Shown here piece by piece: positions 6,085-63,830 of a stretch of DNA of 64,000 nucleotides (within the stretch, counting starts at the first letter, position 1; every line of letters begins with the position of its first letter). The notes below the pieces were generated by a model that made no database searches, was not told the origin of the DNA, and saw nothing but the letters and a program-made list of their open reading frames with translations. The position numbers and the translations under genes are program-made. Source of the DNA: a virus; IMG/VR virus record IMGVR_UViG_3300032431_000006, positions 1 through 64,000 of that record; one strand, 5' to 3'.

Positions 6085-6208
6085 GTCACAGAATAGGGGG
6101 ATAAAGTCATAGGATATTCGATATATTTTATAATATATAGCGTTCTGTGACAGACTTAAACCTATACACAGTAACGATTTTACCCCAATATCAAAACGGG
6201 TCGGTGGC
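6085..6208 (+). repeat. composite element E1
   Basis: GTCACAGAA..GTCATAGGA..TATATTTTATAATATATA..TTCTGTGAC, then the conserved tail AGACTTAAACCTATACACAGTAACGATTTTACCCCAATATCAAAACGGGTCGG. Confidence 0.9.
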
Positions 6209-6254
6209 TGAGGTTTGAAGCGCGCGATCGGGCGATCGGGCGATCGGGAAAAAA

Positions 6255-6305
6255 ACTATTTTTGAATTATCCTGATAATCGGCAAAATGTATGCTATGGT
6301 ATAAT
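6255..6305 (+). promoter_or_regulatory. promoter (TGgTATAAT)
   Basis: Extended -10 at 6297-6305; upstream box AAACTATTTTTGAATTATCCTGATAATC is shared with 13250-13280. Confidence 0.65.
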
Positions 6306-6355
6306 AGTTAAGCAGACAAGCTTAGCAGGAATCAAATTATTTAGAGGTTGACTCA

Positions 6356-6679
6356 ATGGTTACAGTTAGAGACTACAAAGACTATACAGCAGGCGAACTG
6401 GCAAATGAACTAGAAAGATTGCAAATAATGGCCGCTAAAAAAATCCCACGTTTTGAAAGACAACTGACGGCAACTGCAACTGCGAGCGAAGCCGATCGGA
6501 TAATCGCAGAGATAAAAGCTATCGGGAATTTTGACGCGGCGCAAGTTGCAGACATTAACACAGCTATCCGCTTTTCGCCGTTCGGCGGCTCTAGCACCGC
6601 AACAGCACAATATATTAAGGATAAAGTGTCAGAAGGGAGTGACCTATCTACAATCTTAGATGACCTTATGAAGAGTTAG
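6356..6679 (+). CDS. hypothetical protein
   Basis: 107 aa; TGgTATAAT promoter 6297-6305; GAGG before the ATG; terminator 6703-6728. Confidence 0.65.
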   Translation: MVTVRDYKDYTAGELANELERLQIMAAKKIPRFERQLTATATASEADRIIAEIKAIGNFDAAQVADINTAIRFSPFGGSSTATAQYIKDKVSEGSDLSTILDDLMKS

Positions 6680-6702
6680 TGCGACTCAGCCTAAAAGAGA
6701 TG

Positions 6703-6728
6703 AACCCGCCCCGCGCGGGTTTTTGTTT
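6703..6728 (+). terminator. rho-independent terminator (shared family)
   Basis: AACCCGCCCCGCGCGGGTTTTTGTTT. Confidence 0.85.
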
Positions 6729-6730
6729 GG

Positions 6731-6755
6731 GTTCCCAACACTGGGATTAATCTTT
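6731..6755. repeat. hairpin motif copy 5
   Basis: gttcccaacactgggattaatcttt. Confidence 0.9.
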
Positions 6756-6770
6756 GCGCGCGATCGCCAT

Positions 6771-7514
6771 TCAACTAGCGGGTTCATCTATGTCGAAAAC
6801 TTTTCCCATTAAAGCCTCTAAAGGACTGCGTACACGCCCCGCTAAAGCGTCATCAGTACCGATTACGGTGTATGTGAGGTTGCGTTCATCAAACGAGTCA
6901 TAAAACGCCGTTTTCCCCGCGCTTTCAAGTATGTCTGATGTGGTAATGCGATCGACACTTTCAATTTGATTAACCTGTTCTAAAATCTGCCTTGATGCGA
7001 TCGGACTGCTAGCGCCTATCACATTGCGATCGAGTAGCTGCGAACTGCCACCTATCACCGATCTATTCTGATGCCATTCTAAGCCTCTGCTGATAATGTC
7101 GCTAGTAGTGCGATTGATAATCTTTTCCGGATCTATTTTCAGTATATAGTTATTAGGATCTGCAATCAGATTTCTACTTTCCCTATCGACAATATCGCCT
7201 GTATTATTTATTAATCTGTCGCTATAATACTGGATTAAATCTTCATTGATTAACGCATCTTTAACCTCAGCTTTCACAAAATCTTTAGCAGCGTCTCTAA
7301 GGGCATTACCAGGACTTTCTTTAAAGGCTGTTTGCCAGTCTTTAGACTCACCCGACGCCATCTTTTTTGCTTCATTAATCGCCTTTTCGGACACTTTTGT
7401 TGCAATATATTTTTTAGCAATACTGCCGCCCGCCCATTTTGCGATTACCTTAGTCGATCCCTTAGTTAAAGCGCCCGCTGCAACCTTGATTAAAATGGGA
7501 ATTATTGCTAACAT
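6771..7514 (-). CDS. hypothetical protein with hydrophobic N-terminus
   Basis: 247 aa ORF in the structural module; N-terminus MLAIIPILIKVAAGAL. Confidence 0.6.
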   Translation of the reverse strand: MLAIIPILIKVAAGALTKGSTKVIAKWAGGSIAKKYIATKVSEKAINEAKKMASGESKDWQTAFKESPGNALRDAAKDFVKAEVKDALINEDLIQYYSDRLINNTGDIVDRESRNLIADPNNYILKIDPEKIINRTTSDIISRGLEWHQNRSVIGGSSQLLDRNVIGASSPIASRQILEQVNQIESVDRITTSDILESAGKTAFYDSFDERNLTYTVIGTDDALAGRVRSPLEALMGKVFDIDEPAS

Positions 7515-7537
7515 TGTGCTATACCTAAATTAGAATT

Positions 7538-7786
7538 ATGTCTCAACAACTAAGCGCCGTAATCAGACTAATTAATCCTCATATCAACTGCTTTTTTAGC
7601 TGCGACTGTGGCTTAAATTGGTGTACAGGCTGCGTTATCGCGACTATTCGGTTGCCTCTAGCCGAACATTCTAATGAGTTTGTGCTGGTTTGCGATATTG
7701 GCAATGAGTTGCACTGGGTAGCTGCAAACCGGGTCAAATATGCCACAATTCCCAACACGGGGATTAGTGAAATTAAAGACTTTTAG
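7538..7786 (+). CDS. doubtful Cys-rich small ORF
   Basis: 82 aa; contains a degenerate hairpin-motif copy near its 3' end; no promoter seen. Confidence 0.3.
   Translation: MSQQLSAVIRLINPHINCFFSCDCGLNWCTGCVIATIRLPLAEHSNEFVLVCDIGNELHWVAANRVKYATIPNTGISEIKDF
7747..7766. repeat. hairpin motif copy 6 (degenerate)
   Basis: aattcccaacacggggatta. Confidence 0.6.
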
Positions 7787-8192
7787 AACTAGAAAACATA
7801 TTTAATTCTAGCCGTTCCCCAAAGTTTTCGGAGTAAGCAGGCATCGAAGTGCGATCGAGACTTAGCAATATAAAATCATAAGTCCGATCGCCCAATAAAC
7901 AACTACCACCAACACCGGGAACTATCCATAAAGGTAATATTTTGGGCTGTTGCGCGTGACCTTTATAAACTCTGTTTTGCTGTCCACTGTTAGGGCTAGC
8001 AAACGATTCTAGGCTAGTGGTGATGTATAAATGAGCTAATACCCCAAATAGCTCAGAACCCGTAGGATTGCCCAAAATATCAATAGTTCCCACCAACGAT
8101 TTCTCAAAAGTTAGCGTAACGAATTGGTAATCAGATTTTAAAAAAGGTACACTGGGTAGAGTGTTTTTTATCAATTGGTTCAATGATATCAT
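7773..8192 (-). CDS. hypothetical protein
   Basis: 139 aa ORF; its start lies in the palindrome ATGATATCAT shared with the divergent ORF. Confidence 0.55.
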   Translation of the reverse strand: MISLNQLIKNTLPSVPFLKSDYQFVTLTFEKSLVGTIDILGNPTGSELFGVLAHLYITTSLESFASPNSGQQNRVYKGHAQQPKILPLWIVPGVGGSCLLGDRTYDFILLSLDRTSMPAYSENFGERLELNMFSSSKSL

Positions 8193-8557
8193 ACTCTCAA
8201 TTTACCCTAAAATATGGTGCTGAGTTTAATGAGCTAATCTACTCCGATTGGCTACCAGTCGCCACGGCTAAAGCGTCAATTTTCCCGTTAGCTTTCCGAG
8301 AGTTAGCGACCGAATATTATCTGGGTTGGCTGCTTTGTACCACATCGGGCGATCGGGAAAATTCAGAGGTCAAAAGTTTTGAAGTCAAACCAGAGGGTTA
8401 CTCAGTAAGTTATGCTAAAAATGATATCCCAAAGTGCGATCGCTGGCTTAAATTTTTAGAACAGTTAGCGATCGCAGCGGGTTTTGAGCTTCCAGAACTT
8501 AAGCGCACTCGAACGTTTGGTGGTAATCGCACCGAGGTATTTGTACACCGATTTTGA
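8183..8557 (+). CDS. hypothetical protein
   Basis: 124 aa; the only long ORF covering this interval. Confidence 0.5.
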   Translation: MISYSQFTLKYGAEFNELIYSDWLPVATAKASIFPLAFRELATEYYLGWLLCTTSGDRENSEVKSFEVKPEGYSVSYAKNDIPKCDRWLKFLEQLAIAAGFELPELKRTRTFGGNRTEVFVHRF

Positions 8558-8559
8558 GC

Positions 8560-8946
8560 TTAAGCTAAGCCCTGTTTTAACTGGTTAATCCGAGTTGCAA
8601 TAATCCCTCGGACTGACTTTCTTTGTTCTACTTTTAGCCAAGCGTCAAGCGTTGTTAAATCCACAGTAGAATTAATGACGGTTGCCGAGTCCTCTATTGC
8701 GTAAGAGCCAAGATCGACAATTTCAGTGTTAGCCATCGGATCGACTGTTTCTGACTGCTGTACAAGCTCGATCGCCTTCAGCTTAGAAAATCTTTGATAA
8801 TCCGGGTGCTCTTGTAATTGTTGGATCTTGGTCGCTCCCAGTGCGTTTGTACCCGCGACTAGCGCGATCGAGTCAAACGATAAAACTGCACCCGGTTTCA
8901 TTCTTGGCTGGCATTTTTCGGGAGAAAAGATAACAACTTGTAACAT
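8560..8946 (-). CDS. hypothetical protein (head-associated by position)
   Basis: 128 aa ORF immediately downstream of the capsid gene. Confidence 0.55.
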   Translation of the reverse strand: MLQVVIFSPEKCQPRMKPGAVLSFDSIALVAGTNALGATKIQQLQEHPDYQRFSKLKAIELVQQSETVDPMANTEIVDLGSYAIEDSATVINSTVDLTTLDAWLKVEQRKSVRGIIATRINQLKQGLA

Positions 8947-8999
8947 GGTTTTTGGGGTTTCTCTTAATAGTTGAATGGGGCTATCAAAGCAGTCAAAAC

Positions 9000-9965
9000 C
9001 TAAACAGCTTTAACCACATCAATATATTTAATCCCTGCCGGATCGTGAATCATTGTACCGCTAGAACATGAGAAAAAAGGGAAGATTCGGGTTAATCCTT
9101 GTGTTGGTGCTAAAAATTGTTCATCAACTAACTGGGCAACTGTAGACTCGATCCGGCGACTGATTACCGCGGGATCTCTTGTGTAAACAATGATCCGATC
9201 GCGGTTAGTTGCAGCCGCAAAAACTCCGTATTTTTCGAGAATATCGCTCGAACTAAAGGGCGATCGGATAAAACTTGCAGAATTACCCGCTGCTGAGGTT
9301 CCCAGTTGCTCGATCGCAGCGTCTAAAGCTGAAACATCGCCATTTTGAGGGTTCATTATTCGAGATGCTAACACCCGCATCCGCTGCGATAACAGAATTG
9401 TGTCAGGCTCTAAAACTGTCTCACCATCCGCACTCAGTCCGGCGCTCAAGATAGTATCAATTAGAAATTCTACCCACTGAGCATAAGTCGCAGTGTTAGG
9501 GTTAAATGCTGACACCGTAACACTGACGTTAGGATTGTTATACAATCCGGTATAACCTAGAACAGGTTCCCCGATCGCCGCGAACCTGTTTAAGCGCTTA
9601 GCTATCTCCGATCGAACTATGTCAATTTTCCGGTTTTCTACTATTTGCCTGATTTGTAGCGCGTCTTGTGTTCGAGCTTCTTGCCACATTACAGAATATC
9701 CTTTTGCTGCCATTACAACAGGATAATTATCTGTACTTAAATTCACGGGCGTTAACGGGATGTCAGCAGCGCCGGGCGCTAGCAATATTGCCTCTTCCCC
9801 TAAATTACCGCCCATAAAGATCGCGCCGACCTCATCCTTCCCAGGCGGTAGGTCGCCCGTAGTAGGGATCAGTGTTCCATTCTCAAAAGGATATTGAGGA
9901 AATCGGTAGTTATTCCGAATTTCTAATCCTTCCGATATGTATTGCCACAAAGCAGAAACTGGCAT
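9000..9965 (-). CDS. putative major capsid protein
   Basis: 321 aa; follows the protease-scaffold gene and a small decoration-like gene; order and size are typical, and from memory it resembles DUF2184-type capsid proteins. Confidence 0.65.
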   Translation of the reverse strand: MPVSALWQYISEGLEIRNNYRFPQYPFENGTLIPTTGDLPPGKDEVGAIFMGGNLGEEAILLAPGAADIPLTPVNLSTDNYPVVMAAKGYSVMWQEARTQDALQIRQIVENRKIDIVRSEIAKRLNRFAAIGEPVLGYTGLYNNPNVSVTVSAFNPNTATYAQWVEFLIDTILSAGLSADGETVLEPDTILLSQRMRVLASRIMNPQNGDVSALDAAIEQLGTSAAGNSASFIRSPFSSSDILEKYGVFAAATNRDRIIVYTRDPAVISRRIESTVAQLVDEQFLAPTQGLTRIFPFFSCSSGTMIHDPAGIKYIDVVKAV

Positions 9966-9978
9966 TTTTTAACCTCTA

Positions 9979-10000
9979 AATTCCCATCAATGGGATTAAT
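9979..10000. repeat. hairpin motif copy 7
   Basis: aattcccatcaatgggattaat; loop TCAA; upstream of the capsid gene start. Confidence 0.85.
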
Positions 10001-10025
10001 AATTTGAGCTTTCAACTGTTAAGAA

Positions 10026-10484
10026 TTAAACCATGTTGAGCGAACAGATTGCCACTTCACCCGCGCCGATCGTAGACAAGAATCGAGCGTTAGGGACTAA
10101 TACAGCATTAGCGCCTGCTACATTTGTTGCTTGACCTTGTGTTGCTCCCACTGTAAAAATAGCGTAAACCGGATCACCCGATTTTACAGCAGCTACAACG
10201 GGGACGCCTATTACACCACGGAAATAATAGGCTATTTGGTCATCGGGCGGATGTTCATCTTTCAGATACCAGCGCTTACAAGCCCCCACAATGATAGATG
10301 AGGCATTAACTGGTAAAATCACACCGCGGCGTTCTAGATTGCCTTCTAAAGCAGTCGCGATCGCCACAAAATGACCGGGTTTTATCGCTGCGGTAATTTC
10401 TGCATTATAAGCAGTACGTCCGCTGTCTTCCTGTCCTGACATTGCTAGCTCACCAGCAACAATCTTATTAAATAGCTCAGGCAT
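10026..10484 (-). CDS. putative head decoration or cement protein (DUF2190-like)
   Basis: 152 aa Gly/Ala/Val-rich protein between the protease and capsid genes. Confidence 0.45.
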   Translation of the reverse strand: MPELFNKIVAGELAMSGQEDSGRTAYNAEITAAIKPGHFVAIATALEGNLERRGVILPVNASSIIVGACKRWYLKDEHPPDDQIAYYFRGVIGVPVVAAVKSGDPVYAIFTVGATQGQATNVAGANAVLVPNARFLSTIGAGEVAICSLNMV

Positions 10485-10501
10485 TGATTACTCCTTTTGA
10501 T

Positions 10502-11584
10502 TTATTTTTTCCAAGCATTCTCATAGCTGATGATTGCTGCTTTACCGTTCGCTAGATCACCTTTTTCTGAGATCGTATCATCTGGCATTTCTGCGGGTAT
10601 TTTTGAGCTTTTTTTGTTTAGTGCAGCCGATCGCTTTTTAGCCATATTGACTACAATCTCGATCGCTCTCAATTCTGCCGTAGCATCCGGTGTTACCAGA
10701 AAGTCCGCGAGCGATCGAGCGAATAACTCGTCAAACTCATGACTGGGCATTTTAGTTTCATTAACCAAAGCTTCAGCCGCCGATCTCAGACTAGCGTATT
10801 TTTGGCTAATCTCAGCATCTTTCTGATATTTTGATACTGACGCTTGCAAAGCTAGCACCTGTGTCTTTAAAGCCTCATTCTCTGCCTTGTGTGTGATTAA
10901 TTCAGCCTGTGATTGTCTGTACTTATCATCTAGATCCAAGTATGCCGGGTCTCTTTTGATATCGTCTACTCTTTCTGTCATTTTTTCTAAAGCTTCCTTA
11001 ACTTTCTGTACTCCGACGGTTTTAATAACTTGCTGCAAGCTATCAGGAAAGCCGCGATCGGCGCGCCCTATTCCTACTGTAGCATCCGCCGGAATAGAAA
11101 CTACACTGATCTCGAAAATTTCCCATTCGATCGCTTTTACTTTTTTTGGGCTGACTAATTTAGAATTCCACTCGTCACTTTCCCAAACCGCATTGCTCAA
11201 TACCTCATGTTTATACACTCGATAGCCTACACTAATTCCCCTGATAATGCCGTCTTTAACATTTTGATACAATTCCTCTGTAGCGGGCGATCGCGACATC
11301 TTAGCCACAGCTAAACCTCGATCGCCTTCCCATTTTATCGAACTAATAACGCCTCGAACCTGATCCGGATCATGATTCCATAAAAATGGAATTAAACCCG
11401 AATTAAGCCGATCGCCCTTAATTGCTTCTTCCCGACAATCTAAAACCTCTTCTACCACCTCCCATAGCTCCCAGTCCATACGGCGATGTGGGGTATTGCT
11501 AGCAAAGCTAAATTCTAGCGTTTTTATCCCTTCAGTATCGATCCCCGCGATCGCCCCGGACACGTCCCGATAGTTCATGTTCAT
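10502..11584 (-). CDS. prohead protease (HK97/S78-type) fused to a coiled-coil scaffold region
   Basis: LWNHD, GISVGYRV and EISVVSIPAD blocks in the N-terminal half; Ala/Glu/Lys coiled coil in the C-terminal half. Start moved to ATG 11584 because the track N-terminus MRFPTLGF is the translated hairpin motif. Confidence 0.8.
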   Translation of the reverse strand: MNMNYRDVSGAIAGIDTEGIKTLEFSFASNTPHRRMDWELWEVVEEVLDCREEAIKGDRLNSGLIPFLWNHDPDQVRGVISSIKWEGDRGLAVAKMSRSPATEELYQNVKDGIIRGISVGYRVYKHEVLSNAVWESDEWNSKLVSPKKVKAIEWEIFEISVVSIPADATVGIGRADRGFPDSLQQVIKTVGVQKVKEALEKMTERVDDIKRDPAYLDLDDKYRQSQAELITHKAENEALKTQVLALQASVSKYQKDAEISQKYASLRSAAEALVNETKMPSHEFDELFARSLADFLVTPDATAELRAIEIVVNMAKKRSAALNKKSSKIPAEMPDDTISEKGDLANGKAAIISYENAWKK

Positions 11585-11590
11585 ATCGCA

Positions 11591-11610
11591 AAATCCCAGT
11601 GTTGGGAATC
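11591..11610. repeat. hairpin motif copy 8
   Basis: aaatcccagtgttgggaatc. Confidence 0.9.
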
Positions 11611-11716
11611 TCATTAACCTTTAACAATTTAGCATAGAGAGGCGGGTTGTAGCGCGTTCGCCCCGTTTTTCAAGACGGATTTATTTTCCTGATTTTCCTG
11701 ATTCTCCATTTTGTTA

Positions 11717-11725
11717 TGATATAAT
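11717..11725 (+). promoter_or_regulatory. promoter (TGaTATAAT)
   Basis: 30 nt upstream of ATG 11756. Confidence 0.6.
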
Positions 11726-11755
11726 ATAAATATCATTGAAAATTGAGGCAATCAA

Positions 11756-12118
11756 ATGCTATTTCTGCCTGTTGACACTTCTTTAGGAACTTTGGAGATT
11801 TCCGAGGTTTATGATTATTACGATCGCCCATGCTTTTTTTCTTGCCACAATACGGTCGGCGATTTGTTTCTCGCTCTTTCTATTGATGAGAATTGCCTGT
11901 TTCATCGGTGGCTATATCTTGCCGTAACGGGCGATCGGTTGCAAGCTATTAAATCGGCAAATATTGCCCTCAAATCTGCTTTTATTGGTGCTGGGAATAG
12001 CGAACTATTCGATGTCAAAATCTTCTGCAACAATACCAGCACGGTCAAATTAATAATCGGTGCAGACTTACCGGACGATCTACTGCCTGCGGATAATGTT
12101 TTTTTGAGTTGCTATTAG
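11756..12118 (+). CDS. hypothetical protein
   Basis: 120 aa; TGaTATAAT promoter 11717-11725. Confidence 0.55.
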   Translation: MLFLPVDTSLGTLEISEVYDYYDRPCFFSCHNTVGDLFLALSIDENCLFHRWLYLAVTGDRLQAIKSANIALKSAFIGAGNSELFDVKIFCNNTSTVKLIIGADLPDDLLPADNVFLSCY

Positions 12119-12126
12119 GAAATACT

Positions 12127-12360
12127 ATGCCATATCAAATCGTCTATTTACACCGGGTCATTGCAGAACGTACAATCTGCCGACCGCTTAAGAAAGGAGA
12201 GGTTGTGCATCATTTGAATGGCATCTCAGAAGACAATAGCCCCGAAAACTTAGAGGTTTGCTCTAGCGCCTCGGTTCATCGGTTGCACCATCGAAAACCG
12301 CACTCCGATAATTTCCAGTCCGATCGCCCTTTAGAACGCGACGGCGACCTCTGGCTTTAA
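12127..12360 (+). CDS. HNH endonuclease
   Basis: VVHHLNGISEDNSPENLEV...HRLHH matches the H-N-H signature; AGGAAA before ATG 12127. Confidence 0.75.
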   Translation: MPYQIVYLHRVIAERTICRPLKKGEVVHHLNGISEDNSPENLEVCSSASVHRLHHRKPHSDNFQSDRPLERDGDLWL

Positions 12361-12366
12361 TGGGAA

Positions 12367-12465
12367 GTCACAGAATACTGTCATATTTATATAATATATG
12401 ACGTTCTGTGACAGCCTCAAACCTATACAGTGTAACGATTTTACCCCAATATCAAAATAGGTCGG
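12367..12465 (+). repeat. composite element E2 (short left arm)
   Basis: GTCACAGAAtacTGTCATATttatataaTATATGACgTTCTGTGAC nested palindrome plus the conserved tail. Confidence 0.9.
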
Positions 12466-12538
12466 GGCGATCGGGCGATCGCCCTAAAAGATTTCTACGA
12501 TCGCCACAGTCAGTATCGGGAATTTAGAGTTTGAAGGT

Positions 12539-13165
12539 TTGATGCTAGAAGATGGGAGTTTTGCGATTGGCGTTCCCCAAATAGGCATCAACTGGCTAAA
12601 TCAAGACACGCAAAATTATACGGCTCAAACCTTGAAACGCTTACTAGCTAAGGGTTCCAAGACACACAAAATCGTCTTTTTTGAGTGTAAGACCGAATTT
12701 AACAAAAATAAGACTTTAGCCGTAAATTTGCTAGATTTCCAGCGCATACTCAGAGTGTTGGACAAATCCGGGTATCAATCGGCAACAGATACCTGTGACG
12801 ACCTAATTGGTGTCGCAATAGATCAGCTTTGGGCGGATGCTTTCAACATCAAACGTGAGAAAGAAGACCGCCAGCGTGTGATTGTTGCGCGTCAAACTCA
12901 TCGGCAACAGTTTCGCGAGATGTTCACCGATTGGCTAAAAAAAGACGGCGACAAACTCTCAATTAGTGTCAACTATGGGGCTGAGGTTAATAAATTAAAG
13001 ACAGCAGCGGGATTATCTTTGAGACTTATTGACGAATACAACCCAGAGGACTATGCACTAATGGAGAAATTAAATCGCACCTACTACAGCTATTCTATGC
13101 TGCGATCGGCTGGACACAATCACGATGAGACGATCGCCCTGATAGACTCAATATCTGCCAAATAG
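12539..13165 (+). CDS. paralog family A protein (N-terminally shortened copy)
   Basis: Shares LMLEDGS and WADAFNIKREKEDRQR...VNYGAEVNKLKT...YNPEDY...LNRTYYSYSMLR with 13363..14049 and 56048..56719; lacks the conserved leader. Confidence 0.65.
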   Translation: MMLEDGSFAIGVPQIGINWLNQDTQNYTAQTLKRLLAKGSKTHKIVFFECKTEFNKNKTLAVNLLDFQRILRVLDKSGYQSATDTCDDLIGVAIDQLWADAFNIKREKEDRQRVIVARQTHRQQFREMFTDWLKKDGDKLSISVNYGAEVNKLKTAAGLSLRLIDEYNPEDYALMEKLNRTYYSYSMLRSAGHNHDETIALIDSISAK

Positions 13166-13174
13166 ACAGCACCT

Positions 13175-13200
13175 AACCCGCCCCGCGCGGGTTTTTGTTT
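13175..13200 (+). terminator. rho-independent terminator (shared family)
   Basis: AACCCGCCCCGCGCGGGTTTTTGTTT. Confidence 0.85.
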
Positions 13201-13207
13201 GGGTAGA

Positions 13208-13231
13208 CTCCCAACACTGGGATTAATCTTT
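13208..13231. repeat. hairpin motif copy 9
   Basis: ctcccaacactgggattaatcttt. Confidence 0.9.
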
Positions 13232-13290
13232 GCGGGCGATCGGGTGAAAGAAAACTATTTTTGAATTATCCTGATAATCTGCTGAGGTTG

Positions 13291-13362
13291 TGCTATAATA
13301 TAGGAAACACCGCGAAGCGCAAACTTCCGGTGCATGAGCAAACCTACCTAAGAGGTCAACTA
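13291..13362 (+). promoter_or_regulatory. promoter TGcTATAAT plus conserved 5' leader L1
   Basis: Leader ..CACCGCGAAGCGCAAACTTCCGGTGCATGAGCAAACCTACCTAAGAGGTCAACTA-ATG; stem CACCG/CGGTG. Confidence 0.7.
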
Positions 13363-14049
13363 ATGCCTAATATAACACAGAAAGCAATCGTAACGCAAGT
13401 CCCGATCGGAACTTTGCAAATAGAGGGCTTGATGTTGGAGGATGGGAGCTACGCGGTCGCGCAACAGCAGGTCGCCAGCCTTTTTGGCTTAACCACAAAT
13501 CACGTCACGAGAGACCTCAAAGCTATACTAGGAGCGGGTTCTGGCTTAACCAAGGTAAGTACAAACCGGAATACAGGCGACGCAAAAAACGCAACCGAAG
13601 TCGCATTAAACCTTGTGCAATTTCAAATTGTAATAGTCAAGTTATCGGCAAAAGGACATCTGTTTGCTCTCGAACTGAATCTGGCTTTAGTCGGTTTGGC
13701 ATTGACTCAGTTATTCTCGGATGCGTTTGGGGTTAAGTTCGAGAAAGAGGAACGCCAGCGTCATTTATTAGCGCTTCAAACTCATCGTGAACAGTTTCGC
13801 GTTAAGTTTACCGACTGGCTAAAAGAAGACGGCGAGAAATTCTCACTTACTGTCAACTATGGGGCTGAGGTTAACAAGCTAAAAACATCCGCAAATCTAC
13901 CATTAACACATCTGCACGATTACAAACCAGAGGACTATCCAATAATGGAGGAATTGAATCGCACGTATCACAGCTATTCTATGCTGCGATTGGCTGGTAA
14001 AACTCACGATGAGACGATCGCCCTGATAACTTTAGCTTCTACCAAATAG
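13363..14049 (+). CDS. paralog family A protein
   Basis: ATG 13363 preceded by the conserved leader and AAGAGG; the track ORF start at 13261 lies inside the promoter and leader. Confidence 0.75.
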   Translation: MPNITQKAIVTQVPIGTLQIEGLMLEDGSYAVAQQQVASLFGLTTNHVTRDLKAILGAGSGLTKVSTNRNTGDAKNATEVALNLVQFQIVIVKLSAKGHLFALELNLALVGLALTQLFSDAFGVKFEKEERQRHLLALQTHREQFRVKFTDWLKEDGEKFSLTVNYGAEVNKLKTSANLPLTHLHDYKPEDYPIMEELNRTYHSYSMLRLAGKTHDETIALITLASTK

Positions 14050-14058
14050 ACAGCACCT

Positions 14059-14084
14059 AACCCGCCCCGCGCGGGTTTTTGTTT
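14059..14084 (+). terminator. rho-independent terminator (shared family)
   Basis: AACCCGCCCCGCGCGGGTTTTTGTTT. Confidence 0.85.
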
Positions 14085-14090
14085 GGGTAG

Positions 14091-14115
14091 GTTCCCAACA
14101 CTGGGATTAATCTTT
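14091..14115. repeat. hairpin motif copy 10
   Basis: gttcccaacactgggattaatcttt. Confidence 0.9.
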
Positions 14116-14131
14116 ACGGGCGATCGCCCCG

Positions 14132-15268: not shown

Positions 15269-15278
15269 AATTGTGATG

Positions 15279-15296
15279 ATTCCCAGTGTTGGGAAT
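15279..15296. repeat. hairpin motif copy 11
   Basis: attcccagtgttgggaat; perfect 7-bp arms; 10 nt upstream of the portal ATG. Confidence 0.9.
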
Positions 15297-15343
15297 ACCG
15301 ATATAGTATGTTATGCTGTAATCTAACATACAGGATACAACTC

Positions 15344-17549: not shown

Positions 17550-17642
17550 CTGAGATTAATTGCAAATATATCTAAAAGTAACACACAAACACAATAAATG
17601 CGATCGAGATTTTAGTCCCGATCGCCCTGGTTATTGCTGGTT

Positions 17643-17661
17643 AATTCCCAACACTGGGAAT
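17643..17661. repeat. hairpin motif copy 12
   Basis: aattcccaacactgggaat. Confidence 0.9.
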
Positions 17662-17662
17662 G

Positions 17663-18867: not shown

Positions 18868-19012
18868 GTCACAGAATAGGGGATAAAGTCATAGAATATT
18901 CGGTATATTTTATAATATATAGCGTTTTGTGACAGACTTAAACCTATACACAGTAACGCTTGCAGCCATTTTGAAAACTCGATGCCAAATAGCACTAATA
19001 TCCCCAATATTG
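18868..19012 (+). repeat. composite element E3 (long tail variant)
   Basis: Same head as E1; the tail carries about 40 extra nt between GTAACG and CCCCAATATT. Confidence 0.9.
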
Positions 19013-19068
19013 CGCGGGCGATCGCTCTAAAAGATTTCTACTATTTTCCTGATATTCCACTAGAGCTA

Positions 19069-20078: not shown

Positions 20079-20194
20079 GTCATACGAAAAAGTCATAATT
20101 TATATATATATATGCCTTCTATGACAAGCTTAAACCTATATACAGTAACGATTGCAGACATTGTAAAAACAGAGTGTCAAATTACCCCAATATT
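20079..20194 (+). repeat. composite element E4 (long tail variant, divergent head)
   Basis: GTCATACgaaaaaGTCATAAtttatatatatatatgccTTCTATGAC, plus a tail with an insert related to E3. Confidence 0.8.
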
Positions 20195-20414
20195 CCCATA
20201 ATCTGACTTCGGAGGCAGAGCAAATTAAGGGCGATCGGGTCATTCTCTGGCTGCATTTTAATAGGTTGCTACAGAAACAACCGGACTCTACCATTAACAG
20301 TTGGATGATATTTTTTATCAAAAATATTTTAAACATTTTGGCTTTTTGACTTTTGTTTTGTTTTGCTTTAATGTAGCTTCAGTATGTTAAATTTTCCTAG
20401 TTTTAAAAAATGCT

Positions 20415-31567: not shown

Positions 31568-31651
31568 GTCACAGAATAGGGAGAAAGTCACAGCACAAAC
31601 GTCATATTTATAATCTATATGACATTCTGTGACAGACTCAAACCTATACAG
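31568..31651 (+). repeat. composite element E5 (tail truncated by a gene)
   Basis: GTCACAGAATAGGGAGAAAGTCACAG...GTCATATTTATAATCTATATGACATTCTGTGACAGACTCAAACCTATACAG. Confidence 0.85.
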
Positions 31652-31658
31652 GGTATAG

Positions 31659-32123
31659 CTATCTCCCCTTTTTTTTGTAGCGCGCGGGTAGTTTTTGAGT
31701 TTTGGGAATAATGCCGGTGATACTTGACCAACTAATGCCACAGAGAATGCTGGAAATAGCGGCTCTAGAGACTTGATAGCGATCGGCAAGCTCGATCGCA
31801 CTAGATCCTGAGTCTGCCAAAGTCACAATGTCTCTAACTTGTGTCTCGGTTAGCTTAGCTTTTGGGTGATTCTCTCCCAGGTTGCAAGATTTAACGGTGC
31901 GATCGGGGGCGATCCTCTCCGTTGGCGCAGCCCCCGTAGGGGCGGGCTGCGCTAACGGGCCCGTGGCTAACTCAGAGATAAACCGAGTAAAGCTCACGTT
32001 GCAGCGGCGACAAACGAGCCGATAAAATCCATCTCCAGCGGTAGGGTAACGGCCCTTTCTGACTACCCGATCGCTAATCAAACATTGTGGGCAATTAACC
32101 GGGTATTTTGGAATGCCTGCCAT
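31659..32123 (-). CDS. zinc-ribbon plus helix-turn-helix DNA-binding protein
   Basis: N-terminal CPQC...CRRC; C-terminal NHPKAKLTETQVRDI...LADRYQVSRAAISSIL block, also present in 53898..54116; lies between two composite-element copies. Confidence 0.6.
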   Translation of the reverse strand: MAGIPKYPVNCPQCLISDRVVRKGRYPTAGDGFYRLVCRRCNVSFTRFISELATGPLAQPAPTGAAPTERIAPDRTVKSCNLGENHPKAKLTETQVRDIVTLADSGSSAIELADRYQVSRAAISSILCGISWSSITGIIPKTQKLPARYKKKGR

Positions 32124-32141: not shown

Positions 32142-32189
32142 GTCATAGTTTATATTATATAGCATCATCTGTGACACCCCAAAATCCCC
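32142..32189 (+). repeat. composite element E6 (partial)
   Basis: GTCATAGTTTATATTATATAGCATCATCTGTGACACCCCAAAATCCCC. Confidence 0.6.
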
Positions 32190-32450
32190 ACAGACCAAAG
32201 GTTGCAAGCGCGGGGCGATCGGGAAATATTGAGAGGTTGCTTTGTAGTATACAGATGTTACAAGTAGTAGTATTAGGGGCGATTAAATCGAAGCGATCGC
32301 GCGATTTTGAGATGCAATTTGTAGGTGGAAACAAAACGCTGCACAAAATGGCTGAGTTCCTTATACAGCAAGGCGTTGAGGGTGGAAACTTTTCTAGCTA
32401 CGGAACCGATGGAGTGCCAGACATTGCCGCGGGTTAGTGCGATCGCCCGC

Positions 32451-44807: not shown

Positions 44808-44926
44808 GTCACACAATGGGGTAAAAAGTCATAGGACATTCACTGTATTTTATAATATATAGCGTCCTGTGACTAACCCAAACCTATACACTGTAACGAT
44901 TTTACCCCAATATCAAAACAGGTCGG
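44808..44926 (+). repeat. composite element E7
   Basis: GTCACACAATGGGGTAAAAAGTCATAGGACA...TATAAT...CCTGTGAC plus the conserved tail. Confidence 0.9.
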
Positions 44927-45300: not shown

Positions 45301-45419
45301 GTCAGATAATGGGGTAAAAAGTCATAGGACAAACGATATATTTTATAATATATACCCTTCTGTGACTAACCTAAACCTATACGCTGTAACGGTTTTACCC
45401 CAATTTCAAAACAGGTCGG
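45301..45419 (+). repeat. composite element E8
   Basis: GTCAGATAATGGGGTAAAAAGTCATAGGACA...TATAAT...TTCTGTGAC plus the conserved tail. Confidence 0.9.
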
Positions 45420-49974: not shown

Positions 49975-50285
49975 CAATACAAACCCGGACTATTGAAAAT
50001 TCCCGTTCGCTTCGATTTAATCGCCCGGCTTATATCAGGCTTATGTAATCGGAGGCGATCGGGCGATCGGGCGATCGCTGCTTTGGTTACAGAGTGCAAA
50101 CCGTTATCAGCAGACGGTTCCAGCGATTCTGAGGGTGATTTGGTTACAGGGTTCAAAATACTCTCACGGGACAAGTCCAAAGGCTTACCCCGCAAAGGTT
50201 TCAGCCATTTAGGGATGCTCTCACGGGACAAGCAAAAACCCGGCAATATTTACCGGGTTTTTTATAGCGGGCGATCGGGTTGTGT
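49975..50285 (-). pseudogene. decayed remnant of a family D paralog
   Basis: Minus-strand translation contains SESLEPSADNGL, resembling the SEWLEPPADNDL repeats of 51104..51724; internal duplications; no intact start. Confidence 0.35.
50234..50264 (+). terminator. rho-independent terminator
   Basis: AAAAACCCGGcaatatttaCCGGGTTTTTTA. Confidence 0.75.
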
Positions 50286-51724: not shown

Positions 51725-51752
51725 AGTGTTAAATGCGAGTGTGGTTGCTAAC

Positions 51753-51761: not shown

Positions 51762-51771
51762 TAAAAACAAA

Positions 51772-51806
51772 ACAAAACCCGGATATTTTATTCGGGTTTT
51801 GTTTTA
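51772..51806 (-). terminator. rho-independent terminator (cassette copy 2)
   Basis: Minus strand reads AAAACCCGAATAAAATATCCGGGTTTTGTTTTGTTTTT. Confidence 0.75.
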
Positions 51807-59389: not shown

Positions 59390-59416
59390 AAAGATTCCCA
59401 ACACTGGGATTAATCC
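59390..59416. repeat. hairpin motif copy 39
   Basis: aaagattcccaacactgggattaatcc. Confidence 0.9.
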
Positions 59417-59542: not shown

Positions 59543-60271
59543 ATGACCTTAGCATTTTTTCAATTCCAAAGCAATCAAGTCCGGGTTGTTGCGATCAACG
59601 GCGAACCCTGGTTTGTGGCTAAAGATTTGTGTGCAGTGTTGGGAATCAGTAATTCCCGTGATGCTGTTGAACGTTTGGATGAGGATGAGAAGGGTGTCGT
59701 TACTACCGACACCCTTGGTGGAAAACAAGAGCTAGTAACGGTTTCAGAGTCTGGGATGTACTCGCTGGTGTTGACTTCCCGTAAACCGCAGGCTAAAGTT
59801 TTTAAACGCTGGATTACTCACGATGTTGTACCCACTATCCGCCAGACTGGGAAATATGAAATCGAGCCGATCGCTCCTACCGAACACCAACTACCAGCTA
59901 CCTATATAGAAGCCTTGAAAGCACTTGTAATAGCGGAGGAAGAGAAAGAGGCATTGATACAAGCAAACGCGCTTCTAAGTGCAACTAACGAATGCTTGCA
60001 AGAGGATATTGAGCTATTTACCGAAGTAGTGGATGAGCTTTTTAACTACTCTTCAATTATTCGGATTGCCAAGTTTAACGAAGTTAATGAAAAAATCTTC
60101 AATTGGTACAGCTTGAAAGCCGCTAGCAAAATGTTAAAAGTAGAGGTAAAAACAGCACCTTGCCCACGCTACGGAAAGAAAAACCTTTACAGCCACGATG
60201 CTTGGCGACTAGCCTATCCCGATGCTAAATTGCCTGAGACTACTACACTAACGATCGCCCGCAAAGATTAA
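59543..60271 (+). CDS. Bro-N domain antirepressor-like protein
   Basis: FQFQSNQVRVVAINGEPWFVAKDLCAVLGI...MYSLVLTSRKPQAKVFKRWITHDVVPTIRQTGKY is a typical Bro-N domain. Confidence 0.85.
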   Translation: MTLAFFQFQSNQVRVVAINGEPWFVAKDLCAVLGISNSRDAVERLDEDEKGVVTTDTLGGKQELVTVSESGMYSLVLTSRKPQAKVFKRWITHDVVPTIRQTGKYEIEPIAPTEHQLPATYIEALKALVIAEEEKEALIQANALLSATNECLQEDIELFTEVVDELFNYSSIIRIAKFNEVNEKIFNWYSLKAASKMLKVEVKTAPCPRYGKKNLYSHDAWRLAYPDAKLPETTTLTIARKD

Positions 60272-60471: not shown

Positions 60472-61167
60472 GTGTATGTCAAACACACTGAGCAAGAATT
60501 TTTGAGCTTCATTCGAGATCAGGCAATGCCTAACGGAAATTTGAGCATCCGTGGTGTCGCGCGCTGCTGTAGTGTTGATGATACTAGCATCATCCGAGGT
60601 GCTGACTTCAAGTCGGCAAAATTAGGTCAAACCCTTACAGAGTATGGGTTTAAGCCTGCTGACTTGGTAGAGAATGGCTTTTCCCCGCAGGCTGTTTGGC
60701 TAGCGATCGAATACTTCGCTTATGAATCAAAAGCAGCCGCCCCGATGGCTAAGCAGTTGGCTCGAACGTTTGGGGCGATCGGGATAAAACACGTTGTCAG
60801 CCAACTAACAGCACCCACGCCAGAACCGCCCCGACAGTTGCCGACATCTTTTGAGGTATTAATAGAAGCTACAAAACTGTTGCCAAGTATCACTAACCCA
60901 ATAATCAAAGCAGCGTTTGAGCAGCGCTTAGCAGAGGAATTGGGAGCAAACAACGCTCTACCAGGAAGTCAAGCTAAACCCGTCATAGCAGCCGTTTTAG
61001 CGCGGGATCTTGGCTATTCTTTAAAACCCGGTGAAGATGCAAAATTGGGTAAGTGGGTGAGGACTTCTCACGAACCTTTGGGGCAAACTCAACACGGACG
61101 CTATCAAGTCAATGTGTACGATCGCACCCCAGAATTAGAGGCAACGATTCGCGGGTTTTTTGACTAA
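60472..61167 (+). CDS. paralog family D-related protein (GTG start)
   Basis: EFLSFIRDQ and AIEYFAYESKAAAPMAKQLARTFGAIG parallel 50286..51077; no ATG upstream of the homologous region. Confidence 0.55.
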   Translation: MYVKHTEQEFLSFIRDQAMPNGNLSIRGVARCCSVDDTSIIRGADFKSAKLGQTLTEYGFKPADLVENGFSPQAVWLAIEYFAYESKAAAPMAKQLARTFGAIGIKHVVSQLTAPTPEPPRQLPTSFEVLIEATKLLPSITNPIIKAAFEQRLAEELGANNALPGSQAKPVIAAVLARDLGYSLKPGEDAKLGKWVRTSHEPLGQTQHGRYQVNVYDRTPELEATIRGFFD

Positions 61168-62189: not shown

Positions 62190-62207
62190 ACTAAAGAGAA
62201 TAAAGTC

Positions 62208-62489
62208 ATGGGAAAATTTAAGAAAGAAGAAGACCGATTAATTGCCGTTAACTGCACTATTAGCAAAAGTGATCTAGAGTTGGCAGAAATGATGGGGAGT
62301 AAATTAGTAGACGGCAAAACGGTCGTCAATACTTCTTTAGGTCTCAGGCAAGTCTTTGATGCTGTCAGAAGGTTTGGGCAAGCTCTGCAAGTCTTGGAGA
62401 ATATCAGAGCTAACCCGCGTCAATCTAGAAAGTTAGTCGATGCTTTTTTGGGGCCTCTTGAAATTAAGGAGGCAAGTAGCGACAGCTAA
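62208..62489 (+). CDS. hypothetical protein (opposite-strand insert)
   Basis: 93 aa; TGgTATAGT promoter 62171-62179. Confidence 0.45.
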   Translation: MGKFKKEEDRLIAVNCTISKSDLELAEMMGSKLVDGKTVVNTSLGLRQVFDAVRRFGQALQVLENIRANPRQSRKLVDAFLGPLEIKEASSDS

Positions 62490-63402
62490 GGGACGCAACC
62501 CAATCCAGTTTATCCTGAGTGTCGATCGTGTGAATAACGCGATCGACAAAAGCCGATCGCCCGTCTAACGTAAAAACACTGCCTGCTATCATTCTCCAGT
62601 CTCCCAGAATTTCAAAGTCGAATAAATAGTTAGCCCCGTTGATCCGCCTTAATTGGTCGCGCGCTGCTATTACCATTAAGTTTTCGTCATCCGCTCCGAC
62701 ACCCGCTCCCCTATAGGTGATTATTTTACCATTAGAAACGCGGGTATCTTCAACTCTGATATATTCCCTATCTCCAAATAATACCACCTCATAATCAATA
62801 TATTGATAAGTTTCTGTACCTAAAATTGTCTCCGAATAATTTATAAATTGTGTTGAATTAATAGCAAATAACGGCGGGCGGGTTTCTAAGTCTATAAGCA
62901 ATGTAAAAATTAACTCTCTGTTTTCTATCTTGAAAACAGCGCCGATCCTATTTGCCAACCCGTTTAAAAAATCAAGGTCTGACTGGTTAGTCTGTGCTAT
63001 TTGCGAAAATTCTATATCAGGTAAATCAAGGGTAAATACTGACAATTGATAGCGTTCTGCTATCTCTTCGAGTATGTCTATTAATCTATATTCTGAATAA
63101 TCCGCATCCCGTTTGAGCTTCAACTGAGGATCTGACAATGGCAACCCGGTCGCTGCGATCGTTCTTAGGTTATTTTGCAGGCTGATCCGATCGACTTCAA
63201 ATAAACCCGCTTTAAGCCTGTATACCGAGTCTACACGCCCTATTTCTAACTCGATAGTAGCTTTAGGCGCGATCGGGATTATGCCTCTGTCAATGACGCT
63301 TAACTCGATATCCGGCGATCCTCCTGTTAGCGGGTCACTATAGCTGAGTTTTACAACGTCTGTTATCAATCTGGGATAGTTGAGTCTGATTAAACTTGGC
63401 AT
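62464..63402 (-). CDS. gpD-like baseplate hub / late control D-like protein
   Basis: 312 aa; N-terminal layout (short edge strand, IELEIGRVDS...GLFEVDRISL, DILEEIAERYQL) resembles the P2 gpD / Mu gp44 family. Confidence 0.6.
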   Translation of the reverse strand: MPSLIRLNYPRLITDVVKLSYSDPLTGGSPDIELSVIDRGIIPIAPKATIELEIGRVDSVYRLKAGLFEVDRISLQNNLRTIAATGLPLSDPQLKLKRDADYSEYRLIDILEEIAERYQLSVFTLDLPDIEFSQIAQTNQSDLDFLNGLANRIGAVFKIENRELIFTLLIDLETRPPLFAINSTQFINYSETILGTETYQYIDYEVVLFGDREYIRVEDTRVSNGKIITYRGAGVGADDENLMVIAARDQLRRINGANYLFDFEILGDWRMIAGSVFTLDGRSAFVDRVIHTIDTQDKLDWVASLSCRYLPP

Positions 63403-63407
63403 ACTTT

Positions 63408-63435
63408 AGATCCCAGTGTTGGGAATAATTAATCC
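63408..63435. repeat. hairpin motif copy 44
   Basis: agatcccagtgttgggaataattaatcc; 6 nt upstream of the gpD-like ATG. Confidence 0.85.
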
Positions 63436-63482
63436 TAGTATACCGCGCGCCGTTCGCCTCGATTTAATCGCCCGATCGCCCC

Positions 63483-63610
63483 GTCACCCGCCGTCACAGG
63501 ATAGGGAGAAAGTCATACAACATACTGATATTTATAATATATATGACGTTCTATGACAGCATCAAACCTATACGCTGTAACGGTTTTACCCCAATATCAA
63601 AACGGGTCGG
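63483..63610 (+). repeat. composite element E9
   Basis: GTCACCCGCCGTCACAGGATAGGGAGAAAGTCATAC...TATAAT...TTCTATGAC plus the conserved tail. Confidence 0.9.
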
Positions 63611-63627
63611 TGGCTGAGGGCGATCGG

Positions 63628-63651
63628 CCGTTACTGGGATCGCAGTAACGG
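63628..63651. repeat. GATC-loop hairpin H6
   Basis: CCGTTACTG-ggatcg-CAGTAACGG. Confidence 0.8.
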
Positions 63652-63680
63652 GATCTAACGCGGGCGATCGCCTTTAAAAC

Positions 63681-63702
63681 CATTACTCGGATCTGAGTAA
63701 TG
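63681..63702. repeat. GATC-loop hairpin H7
   Basis: CATTACTC-ggatct-GAGTAATG. Confidence 0.8.
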
Positions 63703-63718
63703 CTCAGCCGATCGCCCC

Positions 63719-63830
63719 GTCACAGAATAGGGAGAAAGTCATAGGACACACGATATATTTTATAATATATGACATCCTGTGACAGACTAAAACCTATACA
63801 GTGTAACGGTTTTACCCCAATATTAAAACA
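63719..63830 (+). repeat. composite element E10
   Basis: GTCACAGAATAGGGAGAAAGTCATAGGACA...TATAAT...TCCTGTGAC plus the conserved tail. Confidence 0.9.

Follow-up and report, generated by a model that had tools for sequence, protein, structure and literature searches.

Short asymmetric repressor sites of 13 to 17 bp, such as the stoperators (gp71) of mycobacteriophage L5 and the P1 C1 operators, are scattered through phage genomes in a consistent orientation and lie between genes or over promoters. In T4-type myoviruses, the elements called PeSLs (promoter-early stem-loops) combine a sigma-70-like promoter with a stem-loop, flank ORFans and mediate insertions and deletions, and their GC-rich GGGG..CCCC stem-loop terminates transcription arriving from upstream of the element (Arbiol et al. 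2010, PMC2839356; Comeau et al. 2014, PMC4122927). A report on the halovirus HF2 describes intergenic repeats of 29 to 58 bp with AT-rich motifs, conjectured to be promoters, nine of which were cloned upstream of bgaH, and its title says that the intergenic repeats carry promoters (PMC8707807). Cyanobacteria harbor small dispersed repeats (SDRs), described as non-coding and polymorphic for presence or absence (Elhai et al. 2008, via PMC5861425 and PMC4390886); one of them, SDR5, is reported to insert precisely inside the HIP1 palindrome, between nucleotides (nt) 3 and 4 (PMC4390886, citing Elhai 2008). Here we describe element E, a non-coding module of ~125 nt (range, 100 to 150 nt) present in ten co-oriented plus-strand copies, E1 to E10, in a 64,000-nt stretch of cyanophage DNA (positions 1 to 64,000 of IMG/VR record IMGVR_UViG_3300032431_000006), referred to as the window. 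Related uncultured contigs, which are 84 to 93% identical to the window at the DNA level, join the window ends through ~4.2 kb, so that the window makes up roughly 94% of the ~68-kb genome of an uncultured tailed cyanophage.

Nine copies (E1 to E5 and E7 to E10; positions in Table 1) are clear. They were recovered by repeat finding, in a family of 68 nt with nine copies (D3) and one of 153 nt with seven (D1), and independently by an nhmmer profile; for the 31-mer and the 21-mer of the tail, 0 matches are expected in a shuffled window. The initial annotation had counted ten co-oriented elements. Nine of these stand and the orientation is upheld, while E6 proves to be only a degenerate relative, which retains GTCATAG, the AT core and ATCTGTGAC, differs in its tail and is missed by the profile at E<=1e-3. 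Measured against the gene backbone that these phages share, orientation is uniform in all 10 window copies and in all 72 profile matches from related viral and metagenome contigs. Together, the window, 17 viral-contig loci and 23 metagenome loci (loci are labeled L) supplied 47 to 48 distinct copies, which are 75 to 90% alike. Among the window copies, E5 has an intact head and a tail that departs from the others past AAACCTATACAGGG. As noted before, E3 and E4 carry an insert in the tail, an extra 28 to 31 nt between GATT and TTACCCC that their orthologues in related phages carry likewise.

E was found in this phage lineage only. Head-only and tail pattern searches returned the same lineage, and six additional pattern matches, considered as a possible wider family, were dismissed as chance, as was a 26-nt match that was all blastn of E1 produced. 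An exact-pattern scan of 185,579 species-representative genomes (GTDB) gave one match, on a 15-kb contig of a metagenome-assembled genome (MAG) that is collinear with the phage, so the scan reveals no host-genome family of E. A more distant relative with 70% portal identity (L043) has no E; it also has one HIP1 site in 10 kb and no HIP1 enrichment. Separately, 38 nt on the minus strand at 60621-60658, inside the plus-strand gene 60472-61167, resemble the E tail (GGCTTAAACCCATACTCTGTAAGGGTTTGACC; nhmmer E 7.6e-4). A similar stretch occurs at 12522-12559 of L002. The window example lies on the opposite strand of a coding gene, and the resemblance is probably due to chance.

The conserved core of E consists of GTCAYA, 17 to 18 nt, TAnnnT (mostly TATAAT), 8 nt, TTCTGTGAC, 6 nt and a tail of ~55 to 65 nt with the consensus AAACCTATAC..GTAACG..TTTTACCCCAATATCAAAACAGGTCGG. 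The earlier description holds for the GTCAYAG half-sites, for the TATAAT core and for the double palindrome seen in E2. We refer to the GTCAYA box as S2, to the inverted TTCTGTGAC as S3 and to a further upstream half-site as S1. Across 47 unique copies, the distance from S2 to the hexamer is 17 nt in 38 and 18 nt in 9, and that from S2 to S3 is 37 nt in 38 and 38 nt in 9. The hexamer at this fixed position is TAnnnT in 45/47 (TATAAT in 28, TAATAT in 10 and TATACT in 5), and S3 is followed after 6 nt by AAACCTATAC/AAACC in 46/47. S1 is spaced more variably, 17 to 21 nt from S2, and is lacking in 15 copies. Mean pairwise identity is 87% for S2, 86% for the -10 hexamer, 92% for S3 and 83% for the tail, compared with 58% for the spacer, whose length is fixed, and 61% for the S1 region. 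Conserved boxes around a variable spacer of fixed length are the pattern expected for a promoter with operators. The best sigma-70 match scores on average 9.0/12 on the plus strand and 7.8 on the minus strand, with a score of at least 9 in 38/47 and 17/47 copies, respectively; a promoter scan calls E2 as GTCACA-17-TATAAT with 10/12. A promoter or terminator on the minus strand of E was rejected as weaker and inconsistent. Within the window, 22 of the 31 GTCAYAG/CTRTGAC heptamers fall inside E, which occupies 1.9% of the sequence.

Although the half-sites form inverted repeats, they do not behave as the arms of a hairpin. The Y of S2 and the R of S3 vary independently, with 4 C/A mismatches seen against ~3.4 expected under independence (hand arithmetic from counts), and whether a copy has the optional inner GTCAT is unrelated to whether it has the inner ATGAC. 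Hairpin z-scores for single-stranded DNA range from -6.0 (E2) to +0.4 (E4) and are about 0 in E4, E6 and E9 (-0.4 for E9). Because the arms show no covariation and hairpin stability is not maintained, we read the half-sites as separate protein sites, and models that require a conserved hairpin (IS200/IS605-like ends, attC-like sites and single-stranded DNA priming signals) were set aside. Neither an integrase nor a Y1 transposase was found among the ORFs scanned.

The alignments indicate that the tail is conserved as primary sequence and not as structure. Identity by column is 89% among the 31 standard copies. Orthologues are 99% (E2), 100% (E9) and 96% (E10) identical, with flanks at 84 to 88% for the same loci and 84 to 93% for all loci, which suggests purifying selection. 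The RNAalifold consensus of the tail contains 0 pairs, and minimum free energy z-scores near 0 on both strands (-0.14 and +0.45) show folding no better than that of shuffles. The tail stem proposed in the initial annotation (GTTCTGTG/CACAGTAAC) does not survive the alignment: pair 7-31 is broken in 27/31 copies, there are 0 compensatory changes, and pairing stands at 77% versus 78% after shuffling. Of the suggested operator-flanked promoter with a structured leader or small RNA, the promoter and operator geometry is thus borne out by the sequence and the structured part is not. Comparison with Rfam, which had also been suggested, covered CRISPR repeat families as well; it gave 0 matches with the gathering score as cutoff, and at E<=5 no match overlapped E. 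The window has no tRNA or tmRNA genes. The absence of a conserved open reading frame (ORF) holds, with codon-position variability of 0.104/0.120/0.098, an in-frame ATG in 21/48 copies and early stops in some. A micro-ORF in the tail was likewise rejected: frames +0 and +1 are open in 26/31 and 24/31 copies, but without 3-nt periodicity. Past the terminal GGTCGG there is no conserved terminator or other shared feature, and the following sequence differs between copies, which makes a discrete small-RNA gene unlikely. An RNA mimic of a host-factor target, also raised earlier, gains no support from Rfam or from complementarity elsewhere in the window, and an antisense target inside the phage was rejected, as the longest complementary match in the window is 11 to 13 nt versus 9 to 14 for shuffled tails.

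Comparison with related phages, a check proposed in the initial annotation, shows that both E and its neighboring cassettes are polymorphic for presence and absence, and synteny breaks between the window and its relatives cluster at E. The arrangement of E3, a KilA-N gene and E4 is found in the window, L014 and L026, while L008, L009 and L011 have one chimeric copy whose left side is E3 and right side is E4, with the crossover in the 3' part of the tail. In L023 and L035, a single E with the left flank of E7 and the right flank of E8 replaces the whole E7-to-E8 segment, and where the window has 44648-47196, L034 has a gene like that at 32607 with an E on each side. Three states occur downstream of E1: gene 6356 in the window, nothing in L011 and L047, and a different insert of ~2.5 kb in L045. 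L003 and L028 have a solo E between portal and terminase, a place taken in the window by a small plus-strand ORF, and another solo copy occupies a site at 50006-50043 that is cleanly empty in the window and in L023, with a 7-bp ATCGCCC repeat at the junction. The number of E copies beside an HNH gene also differs: some phages have two, one to each side of the gene, the window has one, and L028 has none. A role of E in recombination is directly supported by these contig comparisons; the genes between or behind the copies are mostly KilA-N-type DNA-binding genes. The earlier suggestion of a recombination or insertion end of a MITE-like kind (MITE, miniature inverted-repeat transposable element) is therefore correct as to recombination, but the marks of a transposon are missing: no cognate transposase was found, no host-genome copies exist among the genomes scanned, and the interior is better conserved than the ends.

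The window is also dense in HIP1. The HIP1 palindrome GCGATCGC occurs 54 times in the window versus 0.6 expected (~90-fold), and its core CGATCG 360 times versus 12 expected (8.1/kb in non-coding and 5.1/kb in coding sequence), an abundance that points to a HIP1-rich cyanobacterium as the host. CGATC(G) lies within 16 nt upstream in 24/32 copies with S1 and within 14 nt downstream in 23/30 copies with GGTCGG, so that the ends of E, read as inverted CGATCGCCCC / GGGGCGATCG, are generic HIP1. Two cassette blocks, the single cassette after E1 and the pair after E2, are present or absent exactly between HIP1-containing direct repeats of 11 to 12 bp. Breakpoints lie near CGATCG in 34/91 cases, which exceeds controls drawn from all positions (mean 19, maximum 31) but falls within the range of non-coding controls (mean 24.7, maximum 37); as this proximity is not significant relative to non-coding controls, we do not claim HIP1 as a general breakpoint. 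It is conceivable, though we would not expect it, that E and neighboring cassettes are HIP1-bounded modules that leave the genome as circles and insert again at HIP1 palindromes, at the position reported for SDR5 (between nt 3 and 4). If so, HIP1 would in this phage lineage be the generic attachment site of an integrase-less cassette system, with E as its shared regulatory and homology unit, and would have a concrete role in horizontal exchange between cyanophage and host. The function of HIP1 has been an open question for 30 years, and the HIP1-type bracketing of E and of two cassette blocks offers a testable link between HIP1 and modular exchange. HIP1-derived units of 14 bp (ATCGCCTCGACTCG / CGATTTAATCGCC) were also observed, as a 5.4-copy array at 31490-31565 just upstream of E5, at 23945-23977, at 50004-50045 (the empty E site) and at 63451-63492, immediately left of E9.

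We favor, with a probability of about 0.5, the reading of E as a lineage-specific regulatory cassette, a promoter with multiple operators that also serves as portable homology for the shuffling of accessory genes. The head would be a sigma-70-type promoter firing rightward on the plus strand, with GTCAYA at -35 and TAnnnT as -10, embedded in two to five GTCAY(AG) half-sites in direct and inverted orientation: S1 near -58, S2 over -35, S3 over about +1 to +10, and optional inner sites. The half-sites would act as putative operators for a DNA-binding protein, probably phage encoded, and the tail may be the start of the transcript or an additional protein-binding platform. The repeats, their shared orientation, the pattern of conservation, the lack of structure and of coding, the confinement to one lineage, the recombination junctions and the presence/absence polymorphism are observed; that the head drives transcription, that the half-sites serve as operators and what the tail does we infer from the sequence. 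Recombination between two copies would delete, duplicate or exchange the accessory genes between or behind them; copies that are this alike, most of them bracketed by HIP1-type CGATCG, provide portable homology, and spread by recombination with resident copies would hold every E in one orientation.

Several observations weigh against this reading. GTCAYA is a poor -35, matching TTGACA at 3 to 4 of 6 positions, and a TAnnnT hexamer arises easily within an AT-rich palindrome. The downstream genes do not need E for expression, as each is preceded, between E and its start codon, by a stronger promoter of its own, of the extended -10 or TTGACA-17-TATAGT type. In related phages, solo copies lie between two minus-strand late genes (e.g., portal and terminase in L028), where a plus-strand promoter would drive transcription antisense to one of them. 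E is missing from minus-strand cassettes, which have the same kind of gene-proximal promoter, so a link between E and the downstream gene does not fully explain the co-orientation. Nothing in a promoter/operator model explains 55 to 65 nt of conserved, unstructured tail, and a scan of 30 ORFs found no sigma factor, RNA polymerase, repressor or integrase and named no candidate for the binding protein.

Some of the same evidence would suit a small non-autonomous mobile element, MITE- or SDR-like, that inserts into HIP1-type palindromes, either through a transposase or nuclease acting in trans or as excised circles integrating at HIP1, with the interior holding the sites needed for the reaction. 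There is one clean filled/empty pair: the window and L023 are empty (TTTAATCGCCC|GGCTTATAT or CCCGATCGCCC|GGTTATAT), and L033 and L017 carry GTCAC...GGTCGGGGCGATCGCCC between these flanks. The insertion leaves the 7-bp ATCGCCC repeat, also readable as a 2-bp AT repeat, and an insertion between nt 3 and 4 of a HIP1-like site, the position given for SDR5 in PMC4390886, could produce such a junction. The inverted HIP1-type ends, the over-representation of HIP1 and the solo copies at sites that lack E in other phages fit as well. However, the pair is a single one, and its 7-bp repeat equally fits a slippage deletion between HIP1-like repeats. The ends are generic and the interior is best conserved, the reverse of a typical MITE; no transposase was seen among the window ORFs scanned; and the lone match among 185,579 genomes is on a phage-like contig. 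The two cassette blocks without E show the same HIP1-bracketed presence and absence, which makes such junctions a property of the genome and not of E, and breakpoints are not significantly nearer CGATCG than non-coding controls would predict. A palindromic target also gives no account of strict co-orientation. We consider a mobile element unlikely. Still less plausible, to the point of being barely credible, is that E is the landing pad of free-standing homing endonucleases (the HNH gene 12109-12360 and the zinc-ribbon/helix-turn-helix ORF 31659-32123), whose cleavage and repair would spread E with its neighbors. In L006, L008, L009 and L011 the HNH gene lies between two E copies, E2 abuts its stop in the window, and the ORF between E5 and E6 has a helix-turn-helix of the HNH-homing-endonuclease type (PHROG 6156, 517 and 59). 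Yet in L028 this HNH gene occurs without a neighboring E, most copies have no endonuclease gene nearby, and the association holds at only two of ~12 E loci.

The conservation of the tail could instead mean that E is the gene for a short RNA that acts in trans or in cis through its unstructured, A/C-rich tail, working as an antisense regulator, as a sponge or decoy for a host RNA-binding factor or as a polymerase-modifying leader. Conservation starts at about the predicted start site and spans 55 to 65 nt, column identity is high, orthologues are up to 100% identical, ten promoters would mean a high dose, and a transcript from a solo copy would run antisense across the 3' end of a late gene. 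Against this stand the lack of any consensus structure, of an Rfam family, of a conserved terminator or defined 3' end and of complementarity in the window beyond the shuffled range, and we hold such an RNA to be distinctly improbable. Another alternative is a strand-specific DNA signal for replication or genome handling, either an origin or priming site or a set of promoters pulling the genome one way; in the origin form, initiator-binding inverted repeats would surround an AT-rich unwinding element, perhaps primed by transcription as in T4 oriF/oriG. Inverted binding sites flanking an 18- to 20-bp AT-rich palindrome are a classic origin layout. Genome-wide co-orientation holds whatever the local gene direction in solo cases, and E5 lies ~320 bp upstream of a gene for a 1137-amino-acid (aa) DUF3854 protein with a match to PF02399. 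That match is weak, however (E 5e-5, 22 bits), ten origins in ~68 kb would be unusual, E is freely gained and lost between close relatives, the cumulative GC skew tracks gene orientation and not E positions, and hairpin potential is not conserved; we give this explanation very little credence.

Table 1. Positions of the E copies and associated features in the window
Feature	Position	Strand	Details
E1, full	6085..6204	+	S1 GTCACAGAA 6085; S2 GTCATAGGA 6106; TATAAT 6129-6134; S3 TTCTGTGAC 6143-6151; tail ends GGTCGG 6204; HIP1-type CGATCG either side
E2	12367..12465	+	Without S1; GTCACA 12367; TATAAT 12390-12395; S3 12404-12412; tail to 12465; inner GTCATAT/ATATGAC palindrome; GGGCGATCGCCC next; head abuts stop of HNH gene 12109-12360
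E3, tail-insertion subfamily (~31 nt)	18868..19016	+	S1 18868; S2 18888; TATAAT 18911-18916; S3 18925-18933; with E4 brackets KilA-N gene 19142-19993
E4, same subfamily as E3	20079..20207	+	Weak hexamer TATATA 20103-20108; S3 TTCTATGAC 20117-20125
E5	31568..31676	+	S1 31568; S2 31587; inner GTCAT 31601; TAATCT 31611-31616; S3 31625-31633; abuts stop of minus-strand ORF 31659-32123
E6, degenerate	32142..32209	+	GTCATAG; AT core; ATCTGTGAC 32167-32175; different tail
E7, full	44808..44926	+	S1 44808; S2 44828; TATAAT 44851-44856; S3 44865-44873
E8, full	45301..45419	+	S1 45301; S2 45321; TATAAT 45344-45349; S3 45358-45366; followed by separate promoter (~45491-45537) and KilA-N gene at 45560
E9, full	63483..63610	+	Extra GTCAC 63483; S1 63493; S2 63512; TAATAT 63535-63540; S3 63549-63557; 100% identical to L015 orthologue
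E10	63719..63835	+	S1 63719; S2 63738; TATAAT 63761-63766; S3 63775-63783; tail ends AAAACAGC, passing directly into TTGACA-17-TATAGT promoter
E1 cassette	6237..6755	+	Promoter, gene 6356-6679, terminator, 20-mer TTCCCAACACTGGGATTAAT; bracketed by 11-bp GCGCGCGATCG direct repeat
Two paralogous E2 cassettes	12485..14116	+	Bracketed by 12-bp GGGCGATCGCCC direct repeat
Empty site	50006..50043		Solo E in L016, L017 and L033 between TTTAATCGCCC and GGCTTATAT
Extended -10 promoters	6265-6319, 13264-13318, 19042-19096, 32506-32560, 33494-33540, 45491-45537, 45859-45905, 46675-46721	+	Repeat families D11, D15, D20
Extended -10 promoters	18755-18804, 22771-22820, 24436-24485, 25280-25329, 25902-25951	-	Repeat families D11, D15, D20
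Near-identical intrinsic terminators	6702-6722, 13175-13193, 14059-14077, 33394-33442, 33907-33955		AACCCGCCCCGCGCGGGTTTTTG; end several cassettes

The genes next to E are organized as cassettes. Six copies had been placed at the edge of single-gene cassettes, and E1, E2, E3, E6, E8 and E10 do each precede a plus-strand gene, but not all of these are single-gene units: E2 precedes two cassettes, and E10 heads a multi-gene block whose first gene we take from its translation to be RusA-like. The gene-proximal promoters form a family of ~14 members on both strands, near consensus, with an extended -10 (TGnTATAAT) or the form TTGACA-17-TATAGT. The extended -10 members share an upstream block, TAAAAGATTTCTA..TTTCCTGATATTC or AAACCGTCCGGTTTTG, and sit before accessory genes. 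As near-identical terminators end several of them, the cassettes have regulatory sequence in common at the 5' side and at the 3' side alike. A terminator usually comes first, followed by the 20-mer hairpin motif, HIP1, E, a second HIP1, the promoter and the gene, which makes E a module of its own between cassettes and not their only promoter. The E1 cassette is absent from L011 and L047, and the E2 pair is absent from L001, L005, L009, L011, L013 and L026.

Other repeated features accompany the cassettes. The 20-mer TTCCCAACACTGGGATTAAT, with the hairpin TCCCA-ACAC-TGGGA, has 29 sites on both strands at up to 3 mismatches, versus 0.02 expected, and so outnumbers E; examples are 6732-6751(+), 14092-14111(+), 15276-15295(-), 27566-27585(-), 59395-59414(+) and 63406-63425(-). 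It often lies past cassette terminators or 3 to 10 nt upstream of minus-strand starts (1817, 15268 and 63402). Four paralogous accessory families, several of them KilA-N, are scattered over the window (12539-13165, 13261-14049 and 56048-56719; 19142-19993 and 32607-33392; 24531-25256, 45560-45916 and 45928-46626; 50286-51125 and 51104-51775), a distribution that fits repeated duplication and exchange of cassettes. Wedged between E5 and E6, the 154-aa minus-strand ORF 31659-32123 has an InsA-like zinc ribbon and a helix-turn-helix like the DNA-binding domain of HNH homing endonucleases, and its product is a candidate E-binding protein.

The phage itself is distant from described ones. The window has no megablast match in phage or plasmid collections, and its large terminase subunit (TerL) shares at most 48% protein identity with the nearest one from a cultured phage. 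The large terminase gene at 15637-17073 (-) has tblastn matches to annotated terminase large subunits. From translations, we presume a portal protein at 14132-15268 (-), tape measure, tail sheath-like and major capsid-like proteins, and, from translations alone, two DNA methylases at 22843-23832 and 40355-41197. Pfam and PHROG assign the 1137-aa DUF3854 protein, whose weak match is to an origin-binding protein (helicase), a DEAD-box helicase, the HNH endonuclease, several KilA-N genes and one anti-repressor Ant-like gene (59543-60271). Downstream of E4, ~1 kb at 20200-21170 has no ORF and contains GATTTTA 13 times (20755-20847) and the 16-mer TACCTTAGCCATGCCA 11 times (20893-21066); possible roles are those of an origin, of a packaging region or of a long non-coding RNA. 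Inside the 673-aa gene 57305-59326 (-), presumably tail-fibre-like from its translation, 150 bp are duplicated in tandem at 58170-58469 with 91% identity, and 'LPAYPTLASLGAVSTSTY' blocks recur in the translation. In the ~4.2-kb stretch that joins the window ends, L022 (Ga0209490_10000220) has a 395-aa ORF at 1165-2352 behind a phage-type TGGTATAAT promoter, with an N terminus that we recognize as TnpB-like (IS605 OrfB family). A link between this element and E was considered and dropped, the ends being unrelated.

As a regulated promoter cassette, E would define a regulon of accessory DNA-binding genes, KilA-N and possibly other antirepressor-like genes, in an uncultured cyanophage lineage, and would point to a regulator that recognizes GTCAYAG. 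The conserved, unstructured, non-coding tail merits experiment.

Set against the described systems, E resembles the L5 and P1 sites in that its half-site is a short asymmetric sequence in many copies, consistently oriented and placed between genes or over a predicted promoter. It differs as a composite of 100 to 150 nt with two to five half-sites, a -10 box and a long tail; no repressor has been identified, and there is no sign that the E-bearing phage is temperate. With the HF2 repeats, to which it is functionally similar in the favored reading, E shares being a repeated intergenic sequence with an AT-rich motif in a tailed virus, but HF2 is an archaeal virus with archaeal promoters and its repeats are shorter (29 to 58 bp). 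Like SDRs and MITEs, E is small, non-coding and polymorphic for presence and absence, with one clean insertion compatible with the SDR5 position; unlike them, it was found in a phage lineage only and in none of the cyanobacterial genomes scanned, its interior and not its ends is conserved, and its orthologues are under apparent purifying selection.

The PeSLs are the closest parallel. They and E do not resemble each other in sequence and come from unrelated phage lineages and hosts. The inverted repeats of E straddle the predicted promoter, are AT-rich inside and are not kept as a hairpin, no terminator-like site was called at E1 to E4 (scan of 5600-21200), and E has a weak -35 (GTCAYA, 3 to 4 of 6), HIP1 bracketing and an extra 55- to 65-nt tail undescribed for PeSLs. 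Nonetheless, E too is a short composite non-coding repeat with a predicted sigma-70-like promoter and an inverted repeat. Both elements concentrate beside non-essential accessory genes, with copies flanking single genes, and in both, indel and replacement junctions among close relatives fall in or at the repeats and chimeric copies mark the crossovers. Judged by these features, E is functionally like the PeSLs without being a member of their family. Whatever E does, it would provide a second, independent case of the PeSL principle, in an unrelated phage and host, of regulatory repeats doubling as recombination linkers.

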